A stretch of DNA of 64,000 nt from Prevotellaceae bacterium. GTDB lineage: Bacteria > Bacteroidota > Bacteroidia > Bacteroidales > Bacteroidaceae. The DNA lies in the NCBI GenBank assembly GCA_022508665.1, contig JAFLUT010000002.1, positions 7,606-71,605 on the forward strand, in the 5' to 3' direction. The position numbers and the translations under genes are program-made. Each line of letters begins with the position of its first letter. Positions within the stretch are counted from its first letter, which is position 1. Shown one piece after another: positions 15,884 through 47,388 of the stretch. Below the pieces are notes generated by a model. The model made no database searches. It was not told the DNA's origin and saw only the letters and a program-made list of their open reading frames with translations.

Positions 15884-15940
15884 CGTTTTTTCCCCGACAC
15901 TACAAAACATTTCAATACATTTTTTCCACACTTGCAAAAA

Positions 15941-16131
15941 AGTGGAGGGGTGGAACATCTCCGTTGCAGCGTTGCAGTTGTTGCAGTTAAAAAATGCAGT
16001 GCAACAAAAGTCAAAGAGAATTTTTATATTATATAATTATATAATATAAATCTATTTATAGGTATTATTATGATGTTTGAGGCGTTGCAAACAACTGCAA
16101 CAACTGCAACGCTGCAACGCCACCCCCACCG
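15941..16131. repeat. palindromic intergenic element A: 27-bp perfect inverted repeat around a 104-bp AT-rich core
   Basis: CGTTGCAGCGTTGCAGTTGTTGCAGTT at 15962-15988 has its exact reverse complement at 16093-16119. The flanking boxes GTGGAGGGGTGG and CCACCCCCACC are also complementary. Confidence 0.9.
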
Positions 16132-16159
16132 CTCAACGCAAAGGGAGAGGATCCATCGA

Positions 16160-16274
16160 GGGGACTCTTCAACGCAAATGCGGCAGACTGCATAACGTAA
16201 TTATGGTAGACCGCATAACGTAATTATGGCAGACCGTGCAACGCAATTGTACACAGCCCGCCATGCAACAAAAC
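16160..16274. repeat. direct-repeat array A, 5 units phased at 23 bp
   Basis: The units are GGGGACTCTTCAACGCAAATGCG, GCAGACTGCATAACGTAATTATG, GTAGACCGCATAACGTAATTATG, GCAGACCGTGCAACGCAATTGTA and CACAGCCCGCCATGCAACAAAAC. Confidence 0.85.
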
Positions 16275-16302
16275 AGAATGTTCTATGCAATAAAATACAC
16301 CG

Positions 16303-18111
16303 TCAATCGCCGTCAAGTTTCAGCACGGCAAGGAACGCTTTTTGAGGCACACTCACGTTGCCAATCTGCTTCATTCGCTTCTTGCCTCGCTTCTGCTTCT
16401 CAAGCAGTTTTCTCTTTCGTGTCACGTCGCCTCCGTAGCACTTGGCAAGCACATCCTTTCGCACCTGCTTCACCGTCTCGCGAGCAACGATTTTACCGCC
16501 GATGGCTGCCTGTATCGCTATGTCGAACTGCTGACGGGGCAGAAGTTCTTTAAGCCTCTCGCACATGCGGCGACCGAGCGTGACGGCATTATCGACGTGT
16601 GCCAAAGCCGAGAGGGCATCCACGGGTTCGCCATTGAGCAGGATGTCGAGTTTCACCAGTTTGCTCGGACGGAAACCTGCGGGATGATAGTCGAATGAGG
16701 CATAGCCGCGGCTCACGCTCTTCAACTTGTCGTAGAAGTCAATGACAATCTCGCCAAGCGGCATAAGGAACTCTATTTCAACACGATTACCTGCGATGAA
16801 GTCCTGCTTCACCAGTTCCGCACGCTTGCCGAGACACAAGGTCATTATGGGCCCTATGTAGTTGGCGGTGGTAATGACCGTGGCACGGATGTATGGCTCT
16901 TCCACATGGTCGATGAGCGTGGGGTCGGGCATTCCGCTCGGATTGTGAACCTCCTGCACGCCTCCGTGCTTGTCGTATACCATGTAACTAACGTTTGGCA
17001 CGGTGGTAATCACGTCCATGTTGAACTCTCTGTCGAGCCTCTCCTGCACAATTTCCATGTGGAGCAATCCGAGGAAACCGCAGCGGAAACCGAAGCCGAG
17101 TGCGGCGGAACTTTCGTGCATGAAGGTGAGCGATGCGTCGTTCAGTTGCAACTTCTCAAGCGATGTGCGCAGGTTCTCATATTCGTCTGTTTCAATAGGA
17201 TAGATGCCGGCAAAGACCATCGGCTTCACTTCTTGGAAACCCTGTATCGCTTCGTCCGTAGGATTGGTGAGCGATGTGATTGTGTCGCCCACTTTCACCT
17301 CCGTGGCGTTCTTTATGCCCGTGACGATATATCCCACGTCGCCTGTCTTCAACTCCTTCTTCGGCACCATGTCCATTTTCAGCGTGCCGATTTCCTCTGC
17401 CATGTACTCTTTCTTGGTGTTGATGAACCGCACTTTTTCTCCCGGACGCAACACGCCGTTGAGTATCTTGAAATATGCGATGATGCCACGGTAAGAGTTG
17501 AACACGGAATCGAAAATCAATGCTTGCAACGGTGCATTCTCATCTCCCACGGGGTGCGGCACTCGCTCCACTACGGCGTTGAGTATTTCGCCTACTCCCT
17601 CGCCTGTCTTTCCGCTGGCATATATGATGTCGTCGACGTCGCACCCGATGAGGTCGATAATCTCGTCCGCAACCTCCTCTGGCATGGCATTCGGCATGTC
17701 TATCTTGTTGATTACAGGAATAATCTCAAGGTCGTGGTCAATCGCCATGTAGAGGTTTGAAATCGTCTGCGCCTGCACGCCCTGCGTGGCATCGACAACG
17801 AGCAGCGCTCCTTCGCAAGCGGCGATGGAACGGCTCACCTCGTAGGAGAAATCGACGTGTCCCGGAGTGTCGATGAGGTTAAGCACAAACTTCTGCCCCT
17901 TATATTCCTCATTGTCACCATTGTAGGCATGCTCCATCTGTATGGCATGGCTCTTTATGGTGATGCCTCGCTCCTGCTCCAAATCCATGTCGTCGAGCAT
18001 CTGCCCTTGCGTTATCTCGATAGTCTTCGTCGTCTCCAGCAGACGGTCGGCAAGGGTCGACTTTCCGTGGTCGATGTGTGCTATTATACAAAAGTTCCTG
18101 ATGTTTTTCAT
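16303..18111 (-). CDS. lepA: translation elongation factor 4
   Basis: [17 protein letters not shown]1 motif, 602 aa, and a LepA-specific C-terminal region. Confidence 0.97.
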
Positions 18112-22625: not shown

Positions 22626-23042
22626 CTATTTGTTATCTGTTATCTGTTATTTGTTGCATTTGTTACCAACTCACAAATGCGTGCATACGCTGAAAACACT
22701 GGGCTTGCGTGTGTTTTTGGGTATCTTTCGGCAACAGATAACAGATAACAAATAGAATTTTTCGATGTGGAGGGATGCGGCGATTTTGGGGAGGAGAAAA
22801 AGACGAAAAAGGAGGGTAAAAAAATAAGTTTGTATTATATTATAATAATTAATTATTATAATATAATACAAAAATTTGTTGTCTTTTATTTTCTGCGTCA
22901 AATTGCAAAAACCTATTTGTTATCTGTTATCTGTTGCCAACCGCATACAAAATTCGCCGCAAGCCCAGTGTTTTCAGCGTATGCGCCACATTCCGCATCG
23001 GTAACAAATACATTTGTTGCCAGTTTGTTGCAGGTGATTTGC
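22626..23042. repeat. composite palindromic intergenic element B (nested perfect inverted repeats, GTTATCT microsatellite arms)
   Basis: The 23-mer CTATTTGTTATCTGTTATCTGTT occurs at 22626-22648 and 22913-22935, and inverted at 22733-22755. There is a 26-bp perfect IR (22730-22755 with 22913-22938) and a 27-bp perfect IR (22683-22709 with 22958-22984). Both IR pairs are centred near 22834. Confidence 0.9.
22829..22872. repeat. 44-nt perfect A/T-only palindrome
   Basis: TTTGTATTATATTATAATAATTAATTATTATAATATAATACAAA is self-complementary. Confidence 0.95.
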
Positions 23043-23075: not shown

Positions 23076-23190
23076 ACCTTGCTGCGACAAACAGCGGAGC
23101 GATGAAGCGATAAACGGCGTGGCGATGTTACGATGAACGGTGCAGCGGTATGGCGATGAACGGCAATTACGGCATGCGGTTCACGGCAAA
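23076..23190. repeat. direct-repeat array B, 5 units phased at 23 bp
   Basis: The cores CGACAAACAG, CGATAAACGG, CGATGAACGG, CGATGAACGG and CGGTTCACGG start at 23085, 23108, 23131, 23154 and 23177. Confidence 0.85.
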
Positions 23191-23266: not shown

Positions 23267-23521
23267 ATGGCAACAGCAGTTCTTGCAAATGGGTTATGGT
23301 ATGCCATACCAAATTCTGACACAGACTTCTTCAAAAAGTTGGCAAAAAGAATGGGGTGGACACAATGTAAGACGGATGCGCTGAAACCGCAGGAGGTGGA
23401 GGCAAAACCTGCATTGTGGACAGACGAACTTGTTGGCAAATGGCAGGACACACGCTCGACGGAGCAAATTTTGCAGGACATTCACGATGCACGCACCTCT
23501 AACGACGACATTGCATTATGA
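23267..23521 (+). CDS. putative antitoxin (VapB position; family not recognised)
   Basis: 84-aa ORF whose stop overlaps the PIN toxin start (ATGA). The call rests on position only. Confidence 0.55.
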   Translation: MATAVLANGLWYAIPNSDTDFFKKLAKRMGWTQCKTDALKPQEVEAKPALWTDELVGKWQDTRSTEQILQDIHDARTSNDDIAL

Positions 23522-23916
23522 ACGGCTACATGCTTGACACAGACATTGTTGTGTTCTTCCTTCGCAACAAAAAAGGCATTGGAGAACGTTTGTCGGAATT
23601 AAATTCCAATGACATATATGTGTCAGAGGTAACTGTAGCAGAATTGGAATACGGAAGCAGATGCAGCGGTCGGTATGCAGAGAATAGCGAACTGGTACGC
23701 AAGTTCCTTTCAAAAGTCAATGTTGTCCCTTTTTCCGTTTCTATACGCAGATATGCTTCAGAAAGGCATCGTCTGCGCAGCCACGGCACTCCGATTTCCG
23801 ATTTTGACTTGCTCATTGGATGCGCCGCAGTGGAAAAAGGCTTGGTTATGGTGACAAACAACGTGGCTCATTTTTCCAGAATAGACGGGATAAAGATTGA
23901 AAACTGGGTCGTTTAA
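23518..23916 (+). CDS. vapC: type II toxin VapC (PIN domain)
   Basis: 132 aa. PIN acidic residue contexts MLDTDIVV, SEVTVAELEYG, DLLIGCAA and VTNNVAHFSRI. Confidence 0.88.
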   Translation: MNGYMLDTDIVVFFLRNKKGIGERLSELNSNDIYVSEVTVAELEYGSRCSGRYAENSELVRKFLSKVNVVPFSVSIRRYASERHRLRSHGTPISDFDLLIGCAAVEKGLVMVTNNVAHFSRIDGIKIENWVV

Positions 23917-25401: not shown

Positions 25402-25470
25402 ACGTGCATTTGTATATAAGAGGTAACAAATAACAGATAACAAATGCAACAAATAACAGATAACAAACAA
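25399..25470. repeat. third (inverted) copy of the element-B arm
   Basis: The reverse complement reads TTTGTTATCTGTTATTTGTTGCATTTGTTATCTGTTATTTGTTACC...ACAAATGCACG. It shares a 30-nt identical core, GTTATCTGTTATTTGTTGCATTTGTTA, with 22632-22668. Confidence 0.85.
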
Positions 25471-25496
25471 CTCTGACTAATCAACAACAAACAGAT

Positions 25497-26559: not shown

Positions 26560-26677
26560 TTCTCGTCAATATGACACTGTCGCTTAACGACCATTTTTCA
26601 ATTGCTTATTCTCCTAACTGGTTATCACCAAGTGACCATCACACTAAACAAGTAAGAAAAGCAGAAGTGACAAAAAA

Positions 26678-26702
26678 AGAAGGCCTCCGTAAAAGCCTTC
26701 TT
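26678..26702 (-). terminator. intrinsic terminator after rpmE2
   Basis: The reverse strand reads AGAAGGC-TTTTACGGAG-GCCTTCT followed by TTTTTTT. Confidence 0.65.
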
Positions 26703-26727
26703 CTCTCTTCTGTCCAATTGCGTATCT

Positions 26728-26982
26728 TTATTTCTTCTTCATTGCTGCGTAGCGGCTCATGAACTTGTCCACGCGACCTGCTGTGTCCACAAGTTTTGCC
26801 TTGCCCGTGTAGAATGGGTGAGAAGTTGAAGAAATTTCAATCTTGATGAGTGGATACTCCTGTCCTTCGAACTCGATTGTTTCGTTAGACTTCGCTGTTG
26901 AGCGAGAAAGGAACACATCGCCGTTTGACATATCCTTGAATACAACAGGACGATAGTTCTCTGGGTGAATGCCTTGTTTCAT
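26728..26982 (-). CDS. rpmE2: 50S ribosomal protein L31, type B (no CxxC zinc ribbon)
   Basis: [15 protein letters not shown]...HPFYTGK. There are no cysteines. Confidence 0.93.
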
Positions 26983-27191: not shown

Positions 27192-27199
27192 TACCTTTG
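27192..27199 (+). promoter_or_regulatory. -7 box TACCTTTG upstream of fbaA
   Basis: This is the only TAnnTTTG match between rpmE2 and fbaA on the + strand. It would place the 23-bp array inside the fbaA leader. Confidence 0.4.
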
Positions 27200-27214
27200 T
27201 CGGTGATTAAGGAT

Positions 27215-27306
27215 AGCCGTGTATCGAACAATCGGAAAGCGGTGTGTCGAAACAGCGATAAGCCGTGTGTCGATGTTGCGATGAGCGGTGTTTCGTAATG
27301 CGGCAG
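27215..27306. repeat. direct-repeat array F, 4 units phased at 23 bp
   Basis: The units are AGCCGTGTATCGAACAATCGGAA, AGCGGTGTGTCGAAACAGCGATA, AGCCGTGTGTCGATGTTGCGATG and AGCGGTGTTTCGTAATGCGGCAG. Confidence 0.9.
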
Positions 27307-27354: not shown

Positions 27355-28353
27355 ATGGTTAGTTACAAAGAACTGGGTCTCGTGAACACTCGCGAGATGT
27401 TCAAAAGAGCAGTGGCTGGCGGCTATGCTATCCCTGCTTTTAACTTCAACACAATGGAGCAGATGCAGGCAATCGTGCAGGCTGCTGTTGAGACAAAGTC
27501 TCCTGTCATCATGCAGGTGTCAAAGGGCGCTCGCAACTATGCCAACGGCACTATCCTCCGCAACCTCGCTAAGGGCGCTGTGGAGTATGCTAAGGAACTC
27601 GGCTGCGAAAATCCTGAAATCGTTCTCCACCTCGACCACGGAGACACTTTCGAACTCTGCAAGGACTGCATCGACAACGGTTTCTCATCAGTGATGATTG
27701 ACGGCTCACACCTCCCATACGAGGAGAACGTCGCTTTGGCAAAGAAGGTTGTTGAGTATGCTCATCAGTTCGACGTAACTGTTGAGGCTGAACTTGGCGT
27801 ACTCGCAGGTGTTGAAGACGAAGTTTCTGCTGCTGAGTCTACTTACACTAAGCCAGAAGAGGTTGTTGACTTCGCTACTCGCACAGGCTGCGACTCTCTC
27901 GCAATCTCTATCGGTACTTCTCACGGCGCTCACAAGTTCACTCCTGAGCAGTGTACACTCGTGAACGGCGTACTCGTTCCTCCACCACTCGCATTCGACG
28001 TGTTGGCAGAAATCGAGAAGCAACTCCCAGGCTTCCCAATCGTTCTCCACGGCTCATCTTCAGTGCCAATGGACGAGGTTAACACTATCAACAAGTACGG
28101 TGGCAAACTCGAGGCTGCTATCGGCATCCCAGAGGAGCAACTCCGCAAGGCTGCTAAGTCTGCTGTTTGCAAGATTAACATCGACTCTGACTCTCGCCTT
28201 GCAATGACTGCTGCTATCCGTCAGCACCTCGCTGAGCATCCGGGTGACTTCGACCCACGTCAGTATCTCAAGCCTGCACGTGAGAACATGAAGAAGATGT
28301 ACATCCACAAGATTGTAAACGTTCTCGGTTCTGATGGCAAACTCGCTAAGTAA
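27355..28353 (+). CDS. fbaA: class II fructose-bisphosphate aldolase
   Basis: MVSYKELGLVNTREMFKRA..., with the LHLDHG and GTSHGA contexts. I use the ATG at 27355, because the 27265 extension is translated repeat DNA. Confidence 0.93.
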   Translation: MVSYKELGLVNTREMFKRAVAGGYAIPAFNFNTMEQMQAIVQAAVETKSPVIMQVSKGARNYANGTILRNLAKGAVEYAKELGCENPEIVLHLDHGDTFELCKDCIDNGFSSVMIDGSHLPYEENVALAKKVVEYAHQFDVTVEAELGVLAGVEDEVSAAESTYTKPEEVVDFATRTGCDSLAISIGTSHGAHKFTPEQCTLVNGVLVPPPLAFDVLAEIEKQLPGFPIVLHGSSSVPMDEVNTINKYGGKLEAAIGIPEEQLRKAAKSAVCKINIDSDSRLAMTAAIRQHLAEHPGDFDPRQYLKPARENMKKMYIHKIVNVLGSDGKLAK

Positions 28354-28430
28354 CAATCAGATAGAGTAACACACAGACAGAGTGCAACTAATGGCTTAGG
28401 CCGTTTAGTTGCGCTCTTTTTATCTTCCGC

Positions 28431-29744: not shown

Positions 29745-29830
29745 GGCTGTCCATGCCCCTTCCTTTCCAACAACCACACCAATGGCCCACCACCGCCTGT
29801 TGCCCTATTCAGCCGCACGCATCCTTAAAA

Positions 29831-29914
29831 TATAACTTATATTTTATAAAATCAAACTTAAATTTATATAAATATAACCTATATTTTATAAAACATAAGT
29901 TATGTTTTAATAAA
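29831..29914. repeat. AT-rich direct-repeat array P, 4 units of 21 bp (or 2 of 42 bp)
   Basis: The units are TATAACTTATATTTTATAAAA, TCAAACTTAAATTTATATAAA, TATAACCTATATTTTATAAAA and CATAAGTTATGTTTTAATAAA. Unit 1 and the segment 29884-29904 (units 3/4 junction) also form an inverted pair. Confidence 0.85.
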
Positions 29915-29916
29915 AA

Positions 29917-29943
29917 ATACGGCTGAGCATCGCCCAGCCGTAT
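29917..29943 (-). terminator. intrinsic terminator after pepT
   Basis: The reverse strand reads ATACGGCTGGGCG-ATG-CTCAGCCGTAT followed by TTTTTTATT. Confidence 0.7.
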
Positions 29944-47112: not shown

Positions 47113-47120
47113 TAACTTTG
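47113..47120 (+). promoter_or_regulatory. orphan -7 box TAACTTTG on the + strand
   Basis: Exact consensus with no downstream CDS. It points into the array-N region. Confidence 0.4.
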
Positions 47121-47126
47121 CATACA

Positions 47127-47338
47127 AAATGAAACAGCGATGACCCTCTGTCGTCATCGCCAACCTTTCTCCTCTCAATCGCACAACCGCACACATCCCC
47201 AAAACGCCACTTTTATGCCTCATAAGTCGCAACCGCCGGCACAGATAATCTGCATTGGCTGACTATTATAATCTGTCACGGCTGACTATTGTAATCGTGA
47301 ACGGCAGGGCATTTCAGCGGTCAGCCGTTGTCTTTTTG
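47127..47338 (+). ncRNA. candidate small RNA (unclassified) containing array N
   Basis: The orphan promoter at 47113-47120 is followed by a 5' hairpin (GCGATGAC/GTCATCGC, 47137-47160). A 3' helix ACGGCTGAC/GTCAGCCGT is then followed by TGTCTTTTT at 47329-47337. No ORF. Confidence 0.25.
47240..47331. repeat. direct-repeat array N, 4 units phased at 23 bp
   Basis: The units are CACAGATAATCTGCATTGGCTGA, CTATTATAATCTGTCACGGCTGA, CTATTGTAATCGTGAACGGCAGG and GCATTTCAGCGGTCAGCCGTTGT. Confidence 0.85.
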
Positions 47339-47388
47339 GAATATAAATAAGCAATTCTGCAATAGATGGAAAGCGATCACATCTACCT

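Follow-up and report, generated by a model that had tools for sequence, protein, structure and literature searches.

Plasmid iterons of 22 bp, such as those of the R6K gamma ori and pPS10, form four to seven direct repeats by an AT-rich stretch. At the ends of Tn7 and Mu several transposase sites of ~22 bp (TnsB and MuA, respectively) are placed in direct order over ~90 bp. Mycobacterial MIRU-VNTR and pneumococcal BOX boxB have units of 40-77 bp that belong to few sequence families per genome and form short tandem arrays in the spacers of housekeeping operons, with variable copy number and co-transcription with the neighbours; we know of no dedicated function shown for them.

The closest system described, BrickBuilt, belongs to a member of Bacteroidales, Porphyromonas gingivalis; it is a MITE that sits between genes and has tandem 23-nt units inside (Klein et al. 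2015, PMC4596501). Whole units of BrickBuilt are gained and lost between strains, up to 23 units are present and long stem-loops are predicted; there is one genome-wide unit consensus, AGACCATAGTATCCTCTCATATG, and a leader and a tail with IS5-like 12-bp terminal inverted repeats (PMC4596501). Tandem repeats of 41, 23 and 22 nt are mentioned in strain W83 in the same work (PMC4596501). In the literature that we searched, such fixed-length intergenic repeats are described only for BrickBuilt, that is, for a single species.

Here we analyse four intergenic arrays, A, B, F and N, in a 64-kb stretch of Prevotellaceae DNA around lepA (the window). Their exact 23-bp phase unites them in one class, and they are strongly non-random. 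A sequence-only reading of the window had likened them to iterons or multi-site protein-binding architectures. We think, with moderate confidence, that they are instead labile, lineage-specific non-coding minisatellites of a widespread Bacteroidales class, and not iterons or conserved protein sites. With BrickBuilt, found in the same order, they share abutting imperfect 23-nt units, the intergenic position, predicted stem-loops, the lack of an Rfam match and the growth or shrinkage by whole units between strains; two BrickBuilt copies also adjoin C10 peptidase genes, as array A does. However, the best cyclic match of the BrickBuilt unit consensus to the array A unit is 10/23 in a hand alignment, which is about chance, and the arrays studied here have 3-8 units whose sequence varies from array to array, without leader, tail or IS5-like terminal repeats. 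When up to 2 mismatches are allowed, there are 3 instances of the BrickBuilt terminal repeat GAGACCTTTGCA, fewer than the 6.5 expected, and none of them is close to an array. Since neither the unit nor the terminal repeats nor the flanks match, membership in the BrickBuilt family was rejected: the window arrays work like the BrickBuilt repeat and are not members of its family. MIRU-VNTR and boxB are similar as short variable tandem arrays in spacers, but the units here are of 22-23 bp and have length alone in common. Unlike the R6K and pPS10 iterons, the arrays come without a rep gene or DnaA boxes and with several different units in 64 kb of chromosome; unlike the Tn7 and Mu ends, they lie between housekeeping genes without transposase genes or paired inverted ends around a cargo.

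The 23-bp arrays of the window

The window was scanned for self-match at lags (periods 10-45, 46-bp windows, self-match of at least 63%). Period 23 is the sole enriched period, matching at A, B, F and N and, owing to a heptamer run, at a fifth place; the other periods have 0-2 matches each and locally shuffled sequence has 0.004 per period. Hence the 23-bp phase is real and far beyond chance, and the shuffled control proposed in the sequence-only reading leaves the four arrays vastly above shuffles (~0.004 per period). The three arrays which that reading had listed in addition to array A, all intergenic and of the same phase, are confirmed by TRF and by the lag scan at B, F and N. Self-match is not raised at lags 7, 8 and 11, and thus the 23-mer is not a higher-order repeat of 7-8-mers or of two 11-mers.

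Array A and its surroundings comprise the following features.

16160-16274, no strand assigned: array A, three good 23-bp units (16183-16251) with a degenerate unit (16160-16182) and an inverted partial unit (16252-16274)
16226-16264, minus strand: hairpin of unit 4 and the inverted fifth unit, predicted by RNA folding
15962-16119, no strand assigned: element A, a perfect 27-nt inverted repeat of tandem GTTGCAG 8-9-mers around a 104-bp AT-rich core

Array A lies 29 bp past the stop codon of lepA (16303-18111, minus strand) and upstream of a C10 peptidase gene of 1155 aa. Its sequence at 16160-16274 matches the earlier quotation, and the two differences between units 2 and 3 (2/23 positions) as well as the lepA neighbour, at a gap of 29 bp, are borne out; TRF finds period 23 at 16182-16248 with 2.9 copies. 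Unit 1 is identical to unit 2 at 13/23 positions. Unit 5 is identical to unit 4 at 5/23 positions, which is the chance level, and its sequence CACAGCCCGCC is an inverted copy (8/11) of GGCAGACCGTG in unit 4. Thus array A consists of three good units, one degenerate and one inverted partial unit. Of the five direct repeats with progressively decaying outer units that had been claimed, the 23-bp phase, the three good units and the degenerate unit 1 stand, and the fifth turns out to be an inverted partial copy which forms a hairpin. This hairpin is predicted to have ~14 bp, on the lepA-sense strand and ~40 nt past the lepA stop codon. The RNA fold of 16150-16290 reaches -49.1 kcal/mol on the minus strand (z=-2.83), against z=+0.28 on the plus strand.

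The other arrays of the window and one further array of the source genome are given below.

23076-23190, no strand assigned: array B, four to five 23-bp units; TRF period 23 at 23084-23127
22626-23012, no strand assigned: element B, a long imperfect palindrome with TATCTGT heptamer arms and a perfect 44-bp AT palindrome (22829-22872) at the centre
27211-27306, plus strand: array F, four 23-bp units, CCG and CGG alternating; TRF period 23 at 27211-27295
47229-47331, plus strand: array N module, three 23-bp units and an inverted partial unit; TRF period 23 at 47245-47305
47278-47337, plus strand: terminator-like hairpin at N, ACGGCTGAC / GTCAGCCGT followed by TTTTT, which suits a plus-strand transcript
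L167:2168-2350, ~8-10 kb left of the window: further array, eight 23-bp units in the thrS-dnaB spacer

Array B has the oxaloacetate decarboxylase operon and an antitoxin/PIN pair as its gene neighbours, with element B on one side and the promoter of the antitoxin/PIN operon on the other. The pair itself has a VapBC-type toxin-antitoxin look (23267-23916, an 84-aa ORF that overlaps the PIN-domain gene by 4 bp), and its promoter box, TATCTTTG, is directly downstream of array B.

Array F is located in the spacer of the divergent genes rpmE and fba. The sole plus-strand TAnnTTTG box of this spacer (27192-27199) is 11 nt upstream of the array and the fba ATG is at 27355; array F is between the two and therefore in the fba 5' leader. 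The alternation of CCG and CGG permits pairing of unit 1 with unit 4 and of unit 2 with unit 3. Exact protein matches led solely to the source assembly, ENA ERZ27293310, whose loci L162, L164 and L165 are identical to the window, and to one related strain (L161, see below). In that assembly the window is made up of two contigs (k141_1522982 and k141_608238), the ends of which apparently overlap by ~141 bp at 26635-26775. This overlap is one k-mer length and lies partly over the rpmE 3' end, and the window thus spans an assembly join.

Array N lies in the spacer from an AAA_14 ATPase gene to asnA. A candidate promoter box, TAACTTTG (a -7 box), is found upstream of it at 47113-47120 on the plus strand. 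The region 47113-47340 of the same strand is a candidate small RNA of ~215 nt, with the TAACTTTG box, a small hairpin at ~47140-47165, array N, the hairpin and TTTTT in this order, while both neighbour genes run on the minus strand. At 97.5% identity, 47229-47309 has a second version in L167:2255-2335 of the same genome, ~55 kb away, so that the right half of the L167 array is a copy of array N. In the L167 array GGCTG recurs every 23 bp through different unit types. The near-identical copy at an unrelated locus means that at least one array module was copied between loci. The units of A, B and F are single-copy within the 74 kb of the source genome that were read; as a sample, these 74 kb do not allow a locus-specific unit to be claimed, and the one copied pair among the six arrays would also fit roughly 15 dispersed families.

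The AT-rich region and inverted repeats that had been described beside the arrays are present at two of the four. Arrays A and B are 40-250 bp from long palindromes with arms of tandem 7-9-mers and perfect AT palindromes at their centres; in the core of element A it is a perfect 28-bp palindrome (16023-16050). The architecture of element A is found beside arrays in L026, L011 and L009 also, where the L009 palindrome has a GC core. The element type recurs at 15962-16119, 22626-23012 and 29809-29926 in the window and at L026:8977-9160, L011:7062-7253 and L009:3683-3840. Inverted arms of tandem GTTGCAG, TATCTGT, ATTCATT or ATTTCAT surround a perfect AT-rich palindrome centre (TTTATATTATATA...); the centre is alike across genomes, the arms differ and a 22/23-bp array is often near. 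Repeats of the heptamer type (TATCTGT, TAACAAA, ACAGATA) are seen in spacers at 22627-22655, 22733-22754, 22914-22935, 25416-25471 and 28349-28383.

Unit length, placement and turnover in Bacteroidales

With the lepA protein as the query, 80 genome loci and 80 metagenome loci were collected, and TRF was run on 161 sequences (2.59 Mb). The closest relatives have 94-95% LepA identity and are uncultured Prevotellaceae/Bacteroidaceae of herbivore guts; no relative above 95% was found in the genome and metagenome scans. TRF arrays with at least 2.5 copies in these 161 sequences peak sharply at period 22 (37 arrays), with 12 at period 21, 6 at 23, 5 at 24 and one each at 19, 20 and 25. The first 80 loci were also put through a separate lag scan, where period 22 has 34 matches and periods 19, 20, 23 and 25 have 3-5. 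The 22/23-bp arrays of the relatives are nearly all intergenic and occur in isolate genomes (Leyella stercorea, L059; Bacteroides heparinolyticus, L035; B. gallinarum, L037) as well as in metagenome bins. Among cultivable relatives, Leyella stercorea DSM 18206 and Bacteroides heparinolyticus DSM 23917 carry arrays at their lepA loci. The ratio of 23-bp to 22-bp arrays is 8:2 in the clade of the window (200 kb) and 3:39 elsewhere (2.39 Mb; Fisher p=8.7e-6). Arrays A, B, F and N are made of 3-8 head-to-tail units; in the class to which they belong, the unit has 22 bp in most lineages and 23 bp in the clade of the window. The commonest tandem repeats in the 2.59 Mb of relatives are period-7 arrays (63 arrays).

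The length of the unit is thus shared, whereas its sequence is not. The loose core CCGT-NN-A-N-CG that the sequence-only reading had seen in the four arrays is at the chance level: in an exhaustive comparison of the four consensus units of the window with free rotation and strand, 4-5 columns are invariant against 4.2-4.8 for shuffled units. The motif search which had been suggested as a check, run over 34 arrays with free rotation and strand, gives an information content no higher than that of shuffled units. A bipartite AT-rich/GC-rich shape common to the units is no different from shuffles either, and non-orthologous arrays have no common flanking sequence, leader or tail; the variable positions inside units are weakly clustered. 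A repeat of the REP/BIME (RAYT-associated) kind was rejected, as there is no motif common to the 34 arrays and the window arrays are weakly palindromic.

The placement of the arrays is not random, as follows from three enrichments. Every spacer type is represented, and convergent spacers hold 14 arrays against 7.8 expected from spacer length. A 7-9-mer repeat is found within 300 bp of 15% of the arrays and of 4.6% of random spacer positions, a threefold difference. Four AT palindromes of the element type are present in 2.59 Mb and 3/4 of them are within 250 bp of an array.

The arrays turn over rapidly relative to their surroundings. Relatives were compared as the sequence-only reading had proposed: their orthologous spacers lack arrays A and F, an outcome which it had listed among those that would refute its view. 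The lepA-C10 spacer of L002-L005 has 40-115 bp and a simple hairpin, with neither array A nor element A. The fba upstream regions of the more distant L168-L170 have no array F and carry a TAnnTTTG box ~40-50 nt before the ATG. In the related strain L161 array F is present in a diverged form, with ~66% identity in the array against ~93% in the flanks; the CCG/CGG alternation is kept and the TAnnTTTG box upstream is conserved, and the contig ends inside the array. The AT-rich leader 3' of array F aligns with the fba leader of L170. Together with the position of the box, this alignment makes array F a lineage-specific block of ~100 nt in the fba 5' leader, and we infer that the same fba promoter is used with and without it. 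Longer arrays had been expected at fba homologues with apparently extended genes; this was rejected, as the extensions proved to be C-terminal.

Changes within the arrays are of several kinds. In L138 and L149, which have near-identical flanks, the array lengths are exactly one 22-bp unit apart, and where L059 has 4.2 units L064 retains about two decayed ones. Between L146:2148-2234 and L155:2160-2231 the flanks are ~97% identical and the 22/44-bp array is far more diverged, with clustered multi-base, inversion-like changes such as CCCTTGG versus CAAGGGT, the pattern of which suggests hairpin-templated strand switching.

We suggest slipped-strand mispairing or unequal recombination as the source of the arrays and of their turnover, with multi-base changes from hairpin-templated (quasi-palindrome) strand switching and an occasional ectopic copying of modules. 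Most likely, no dedicated trans-acting partner is involved. The cellular effect would be a by-product, when passive transcription of the arrays with neighbour genes adds secondary structure to the transcripts: the predicted hairpin after lepA, a predicted long hairpin in the fba 5' leader and the putative terminator-like hairpin at N. We note that plain slippage does not account for the sharp unit length of 22/23 bp or for the shift by 1 bp in one clade, which counts against this explanation. The non-random placement of the arrays, the folding of A, B and F on one strand and the CCG/CGG alternation that F keeps in L161 speak against it as well.

Mobile elements, RNA modules and protein platforms as possible alternatives

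The copying of array N between loci brings mobile elements into consideration. The arrays could be pieces of non-autonomous elements, either BrickBuilt-like MITEs or ~22-bp subterminal repeats of a transposase or recombinase, with an own unit for each element family and with the common period as the footprint of one enzyme type. The 97.5% copy of N that the same genome has at an unrelated locus agrees with this, and so do the state of A and F as insertions relative to the relatives, the palindromic elements with 7-9-mer arms beside A, B and the arrays in L026, L011 and L009, and the closeness of AT palindromes to arrays; BrickBuilt is a precedent. The ~22-bp sites of TnsB and MuA point in the same direction. 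However, the flanks of the two N copies are unrelated and their borders show neither terminal inverted repeats nor a target-site duplication, GAGACCTTTGCA is near no array and there is no common leader or tail. The Pfam lists of the window and of a 10-kb extension to the left contain no transposase, integrase, Rep or Cas protein, and the arrays do not form inverted pairs around a cargo. Moreover, the whole-unit indels between near-identical genomes speak for turnover in situ. We therefore regard a mobile origin as unlikely. A CRISPR array was rejected: the units abut without spacers, and cas genes are missing from the Pfam lists.

A part of the evidence concerns RNA rather than DNA. Significant folding is found on one strand only for A (minus, z=-2.83), B (plus, z=-2.27) and F (plus, z=-3.57), and this is always the strand that is sense for the gene downstream. 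This strand-specific folding and the CCG/CGG alternation of F kept in L161 hint at selection on RNA. The arrays may then be selected cis-acting RNA modules, with F in control of the fba leader, A as a lepA terminator or 3' stabiliser and N in the small RNA of ~215 nt. The sole plus-strand box 11 nt upstream of F, which is kept in L161, the pairing of units 1-4 and 2-3, the TAACTTTG box, hairpin and TTTTT of N and the overall enrichment of arrays in convergent spacers are in line with such modules. Against them, the arrays are missing at the same genes in relatives and the four arrays occupy four transcript contexts: a 3' end, a promoter-upstream site, a 5' leader and a free-standing one. In the class as a whole ~70% of the arrays fold significantly on both strands versus shuffles (mean z about -3.4) and many are long near-perfect hairpins. 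As most arrays fold equally on both strands, this is a dyad symmetry at the DNA level and not specific to RNA. About 1/3 of the arrays are plain direct repeats and keep the period all the same, at 22 bp or, for the clade of the window, at 23 bp, and a fixed 22/23-nt period over unrelated sequences is left unaccounted for by RNA function. A known RNA family was rejected, since Rfam 15 gives a tRNA elsewhere in the window as the sole match and the one addition from permissive scans is spurious, a plant miRNA model that matches element A as a long hairpin. Selected RNA modules are, in our opinion, quite unlikely as the explanation of the arrays.

The iteron or multi-site protein-binding architecture proposed earlier follows from geometry alone. 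There are indeed at least three evenly spaced direct repeats, 3-5 units at exactly 23 bp, as in iterons. The absence of a nearby rep-like gene, on which the sequence-only reading was correct, is confirmed by the Pfam lists; the genes flanking the arrays encode C10 peptidase, LepA, DUF2582, OAD subunits, PIN, EIIC, KduI, L31, Fba, AsnA and AAA_14. No DnaA box (TTATCCACA, up to 1 mismatch) is next to A, B, F or N and no array has a cluster; the DnaA-box-like 9-mer nearest to array A, TTTTCCACA at 15922-15930, is ~240 bp off. A replication origin was rejected for the lack of a DnaA-box cluster and of a rep gene. With blastn, neither array A with element A nor array N matches the plasmid collection and array B with element B does not match the phage collection, hence plasmid or phage derivation was rejected. 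An iteron repeat conserved between copies or replicons was rejected as well, because the units differ from array to array and A and F are missing in relatives. With no Rep, DnaA-box cluster, plasmid or phage match or conservation beside it, the iteron reading is not upheld. The window as a whole has 37 copies of TTATCCACA at up to 1 mismatch, where 16 +/- 3.5 are expected; they are mostly on the plus strand up to ~52 kb and on the minus strand after ~57 kb.

A protein could also sense the spacing of about two turns and not the sequence. AA/TT dinucleotides recur with a period of 11.1 bp at the other Bacteroidales loci, where two turns are 22.2 bp, and with a period of 10.6 bp and a high amplitude in the window and the clade loci L001-L005 and L081-L084. 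The unit as two in-vivo helical turns was therefore rejected: 11.1 bp suits the 22-bp lineages, and the clade with 23-bp arrays has 10.6 bp, a shift in the wrong way. Phased DNA platforms for an iteron-like, nucleoid-associated or regulatory protein are thus very unlikely, for although 4-5 direct repeats at a constant 22-23 bp, AT-rich palindromes by A and B, the 11.1-bp periodicity elsewhere, GGCTG every 23 bp across unit types in L167 and the weakly clustered variable positions fit them, there is no common motif or AT/GC segmentation, no Rep gene, DnaA-box cluster or plasmid or phage match, no conservation of A and F, a helical period in the clade of the window that moves the wrong way, and arrays in all spacer types, convergent included.

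The fixed unit length and its meaning

Labile minisatellites without a function of their own remain the explanation that we prefer, and the oddity that remains with it is the exact, sequence-independent and clade-tuned unit length. Tentatively, and with considerable doubt, we raise the possibility of a DNA transaction in Bacteroidales with a built-in ruler, which would make or keep exact 22-bp tandem duplications from arbitrary local sequence. It would be a step of replication, repair or recombination, or an enzyme, that is not yet recognised, and the arrays might then be its footprints and not products of ordinary slippage. On this equally tentative reading the ruler may have gained 1 bp, to 23 bp, twice independently: in the clade of the window and in Porphyromonas BrickBuilt.

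At lepA the practical outcome is negative, with no hidden origin or regulator site there. The arrays are unstable spacer DNA which breaks short-read assemblies, as illustrated by the L161 contig that ends in array F. With or without a ruler, they are ready markers for strain typing and put predicted hairpins in the leaders and 3' ends of core genes. More broadly, the intergenic tandem repeats of Prevotellaceae and Bacteroidaceae have a sharp mode at 22 bp whatever their sequence, and for one clade a move to 23 bp is statistically supported. A ruler, if real, would mean that a major gut phylum has a mutational or DNA-processing mechanism that is new.
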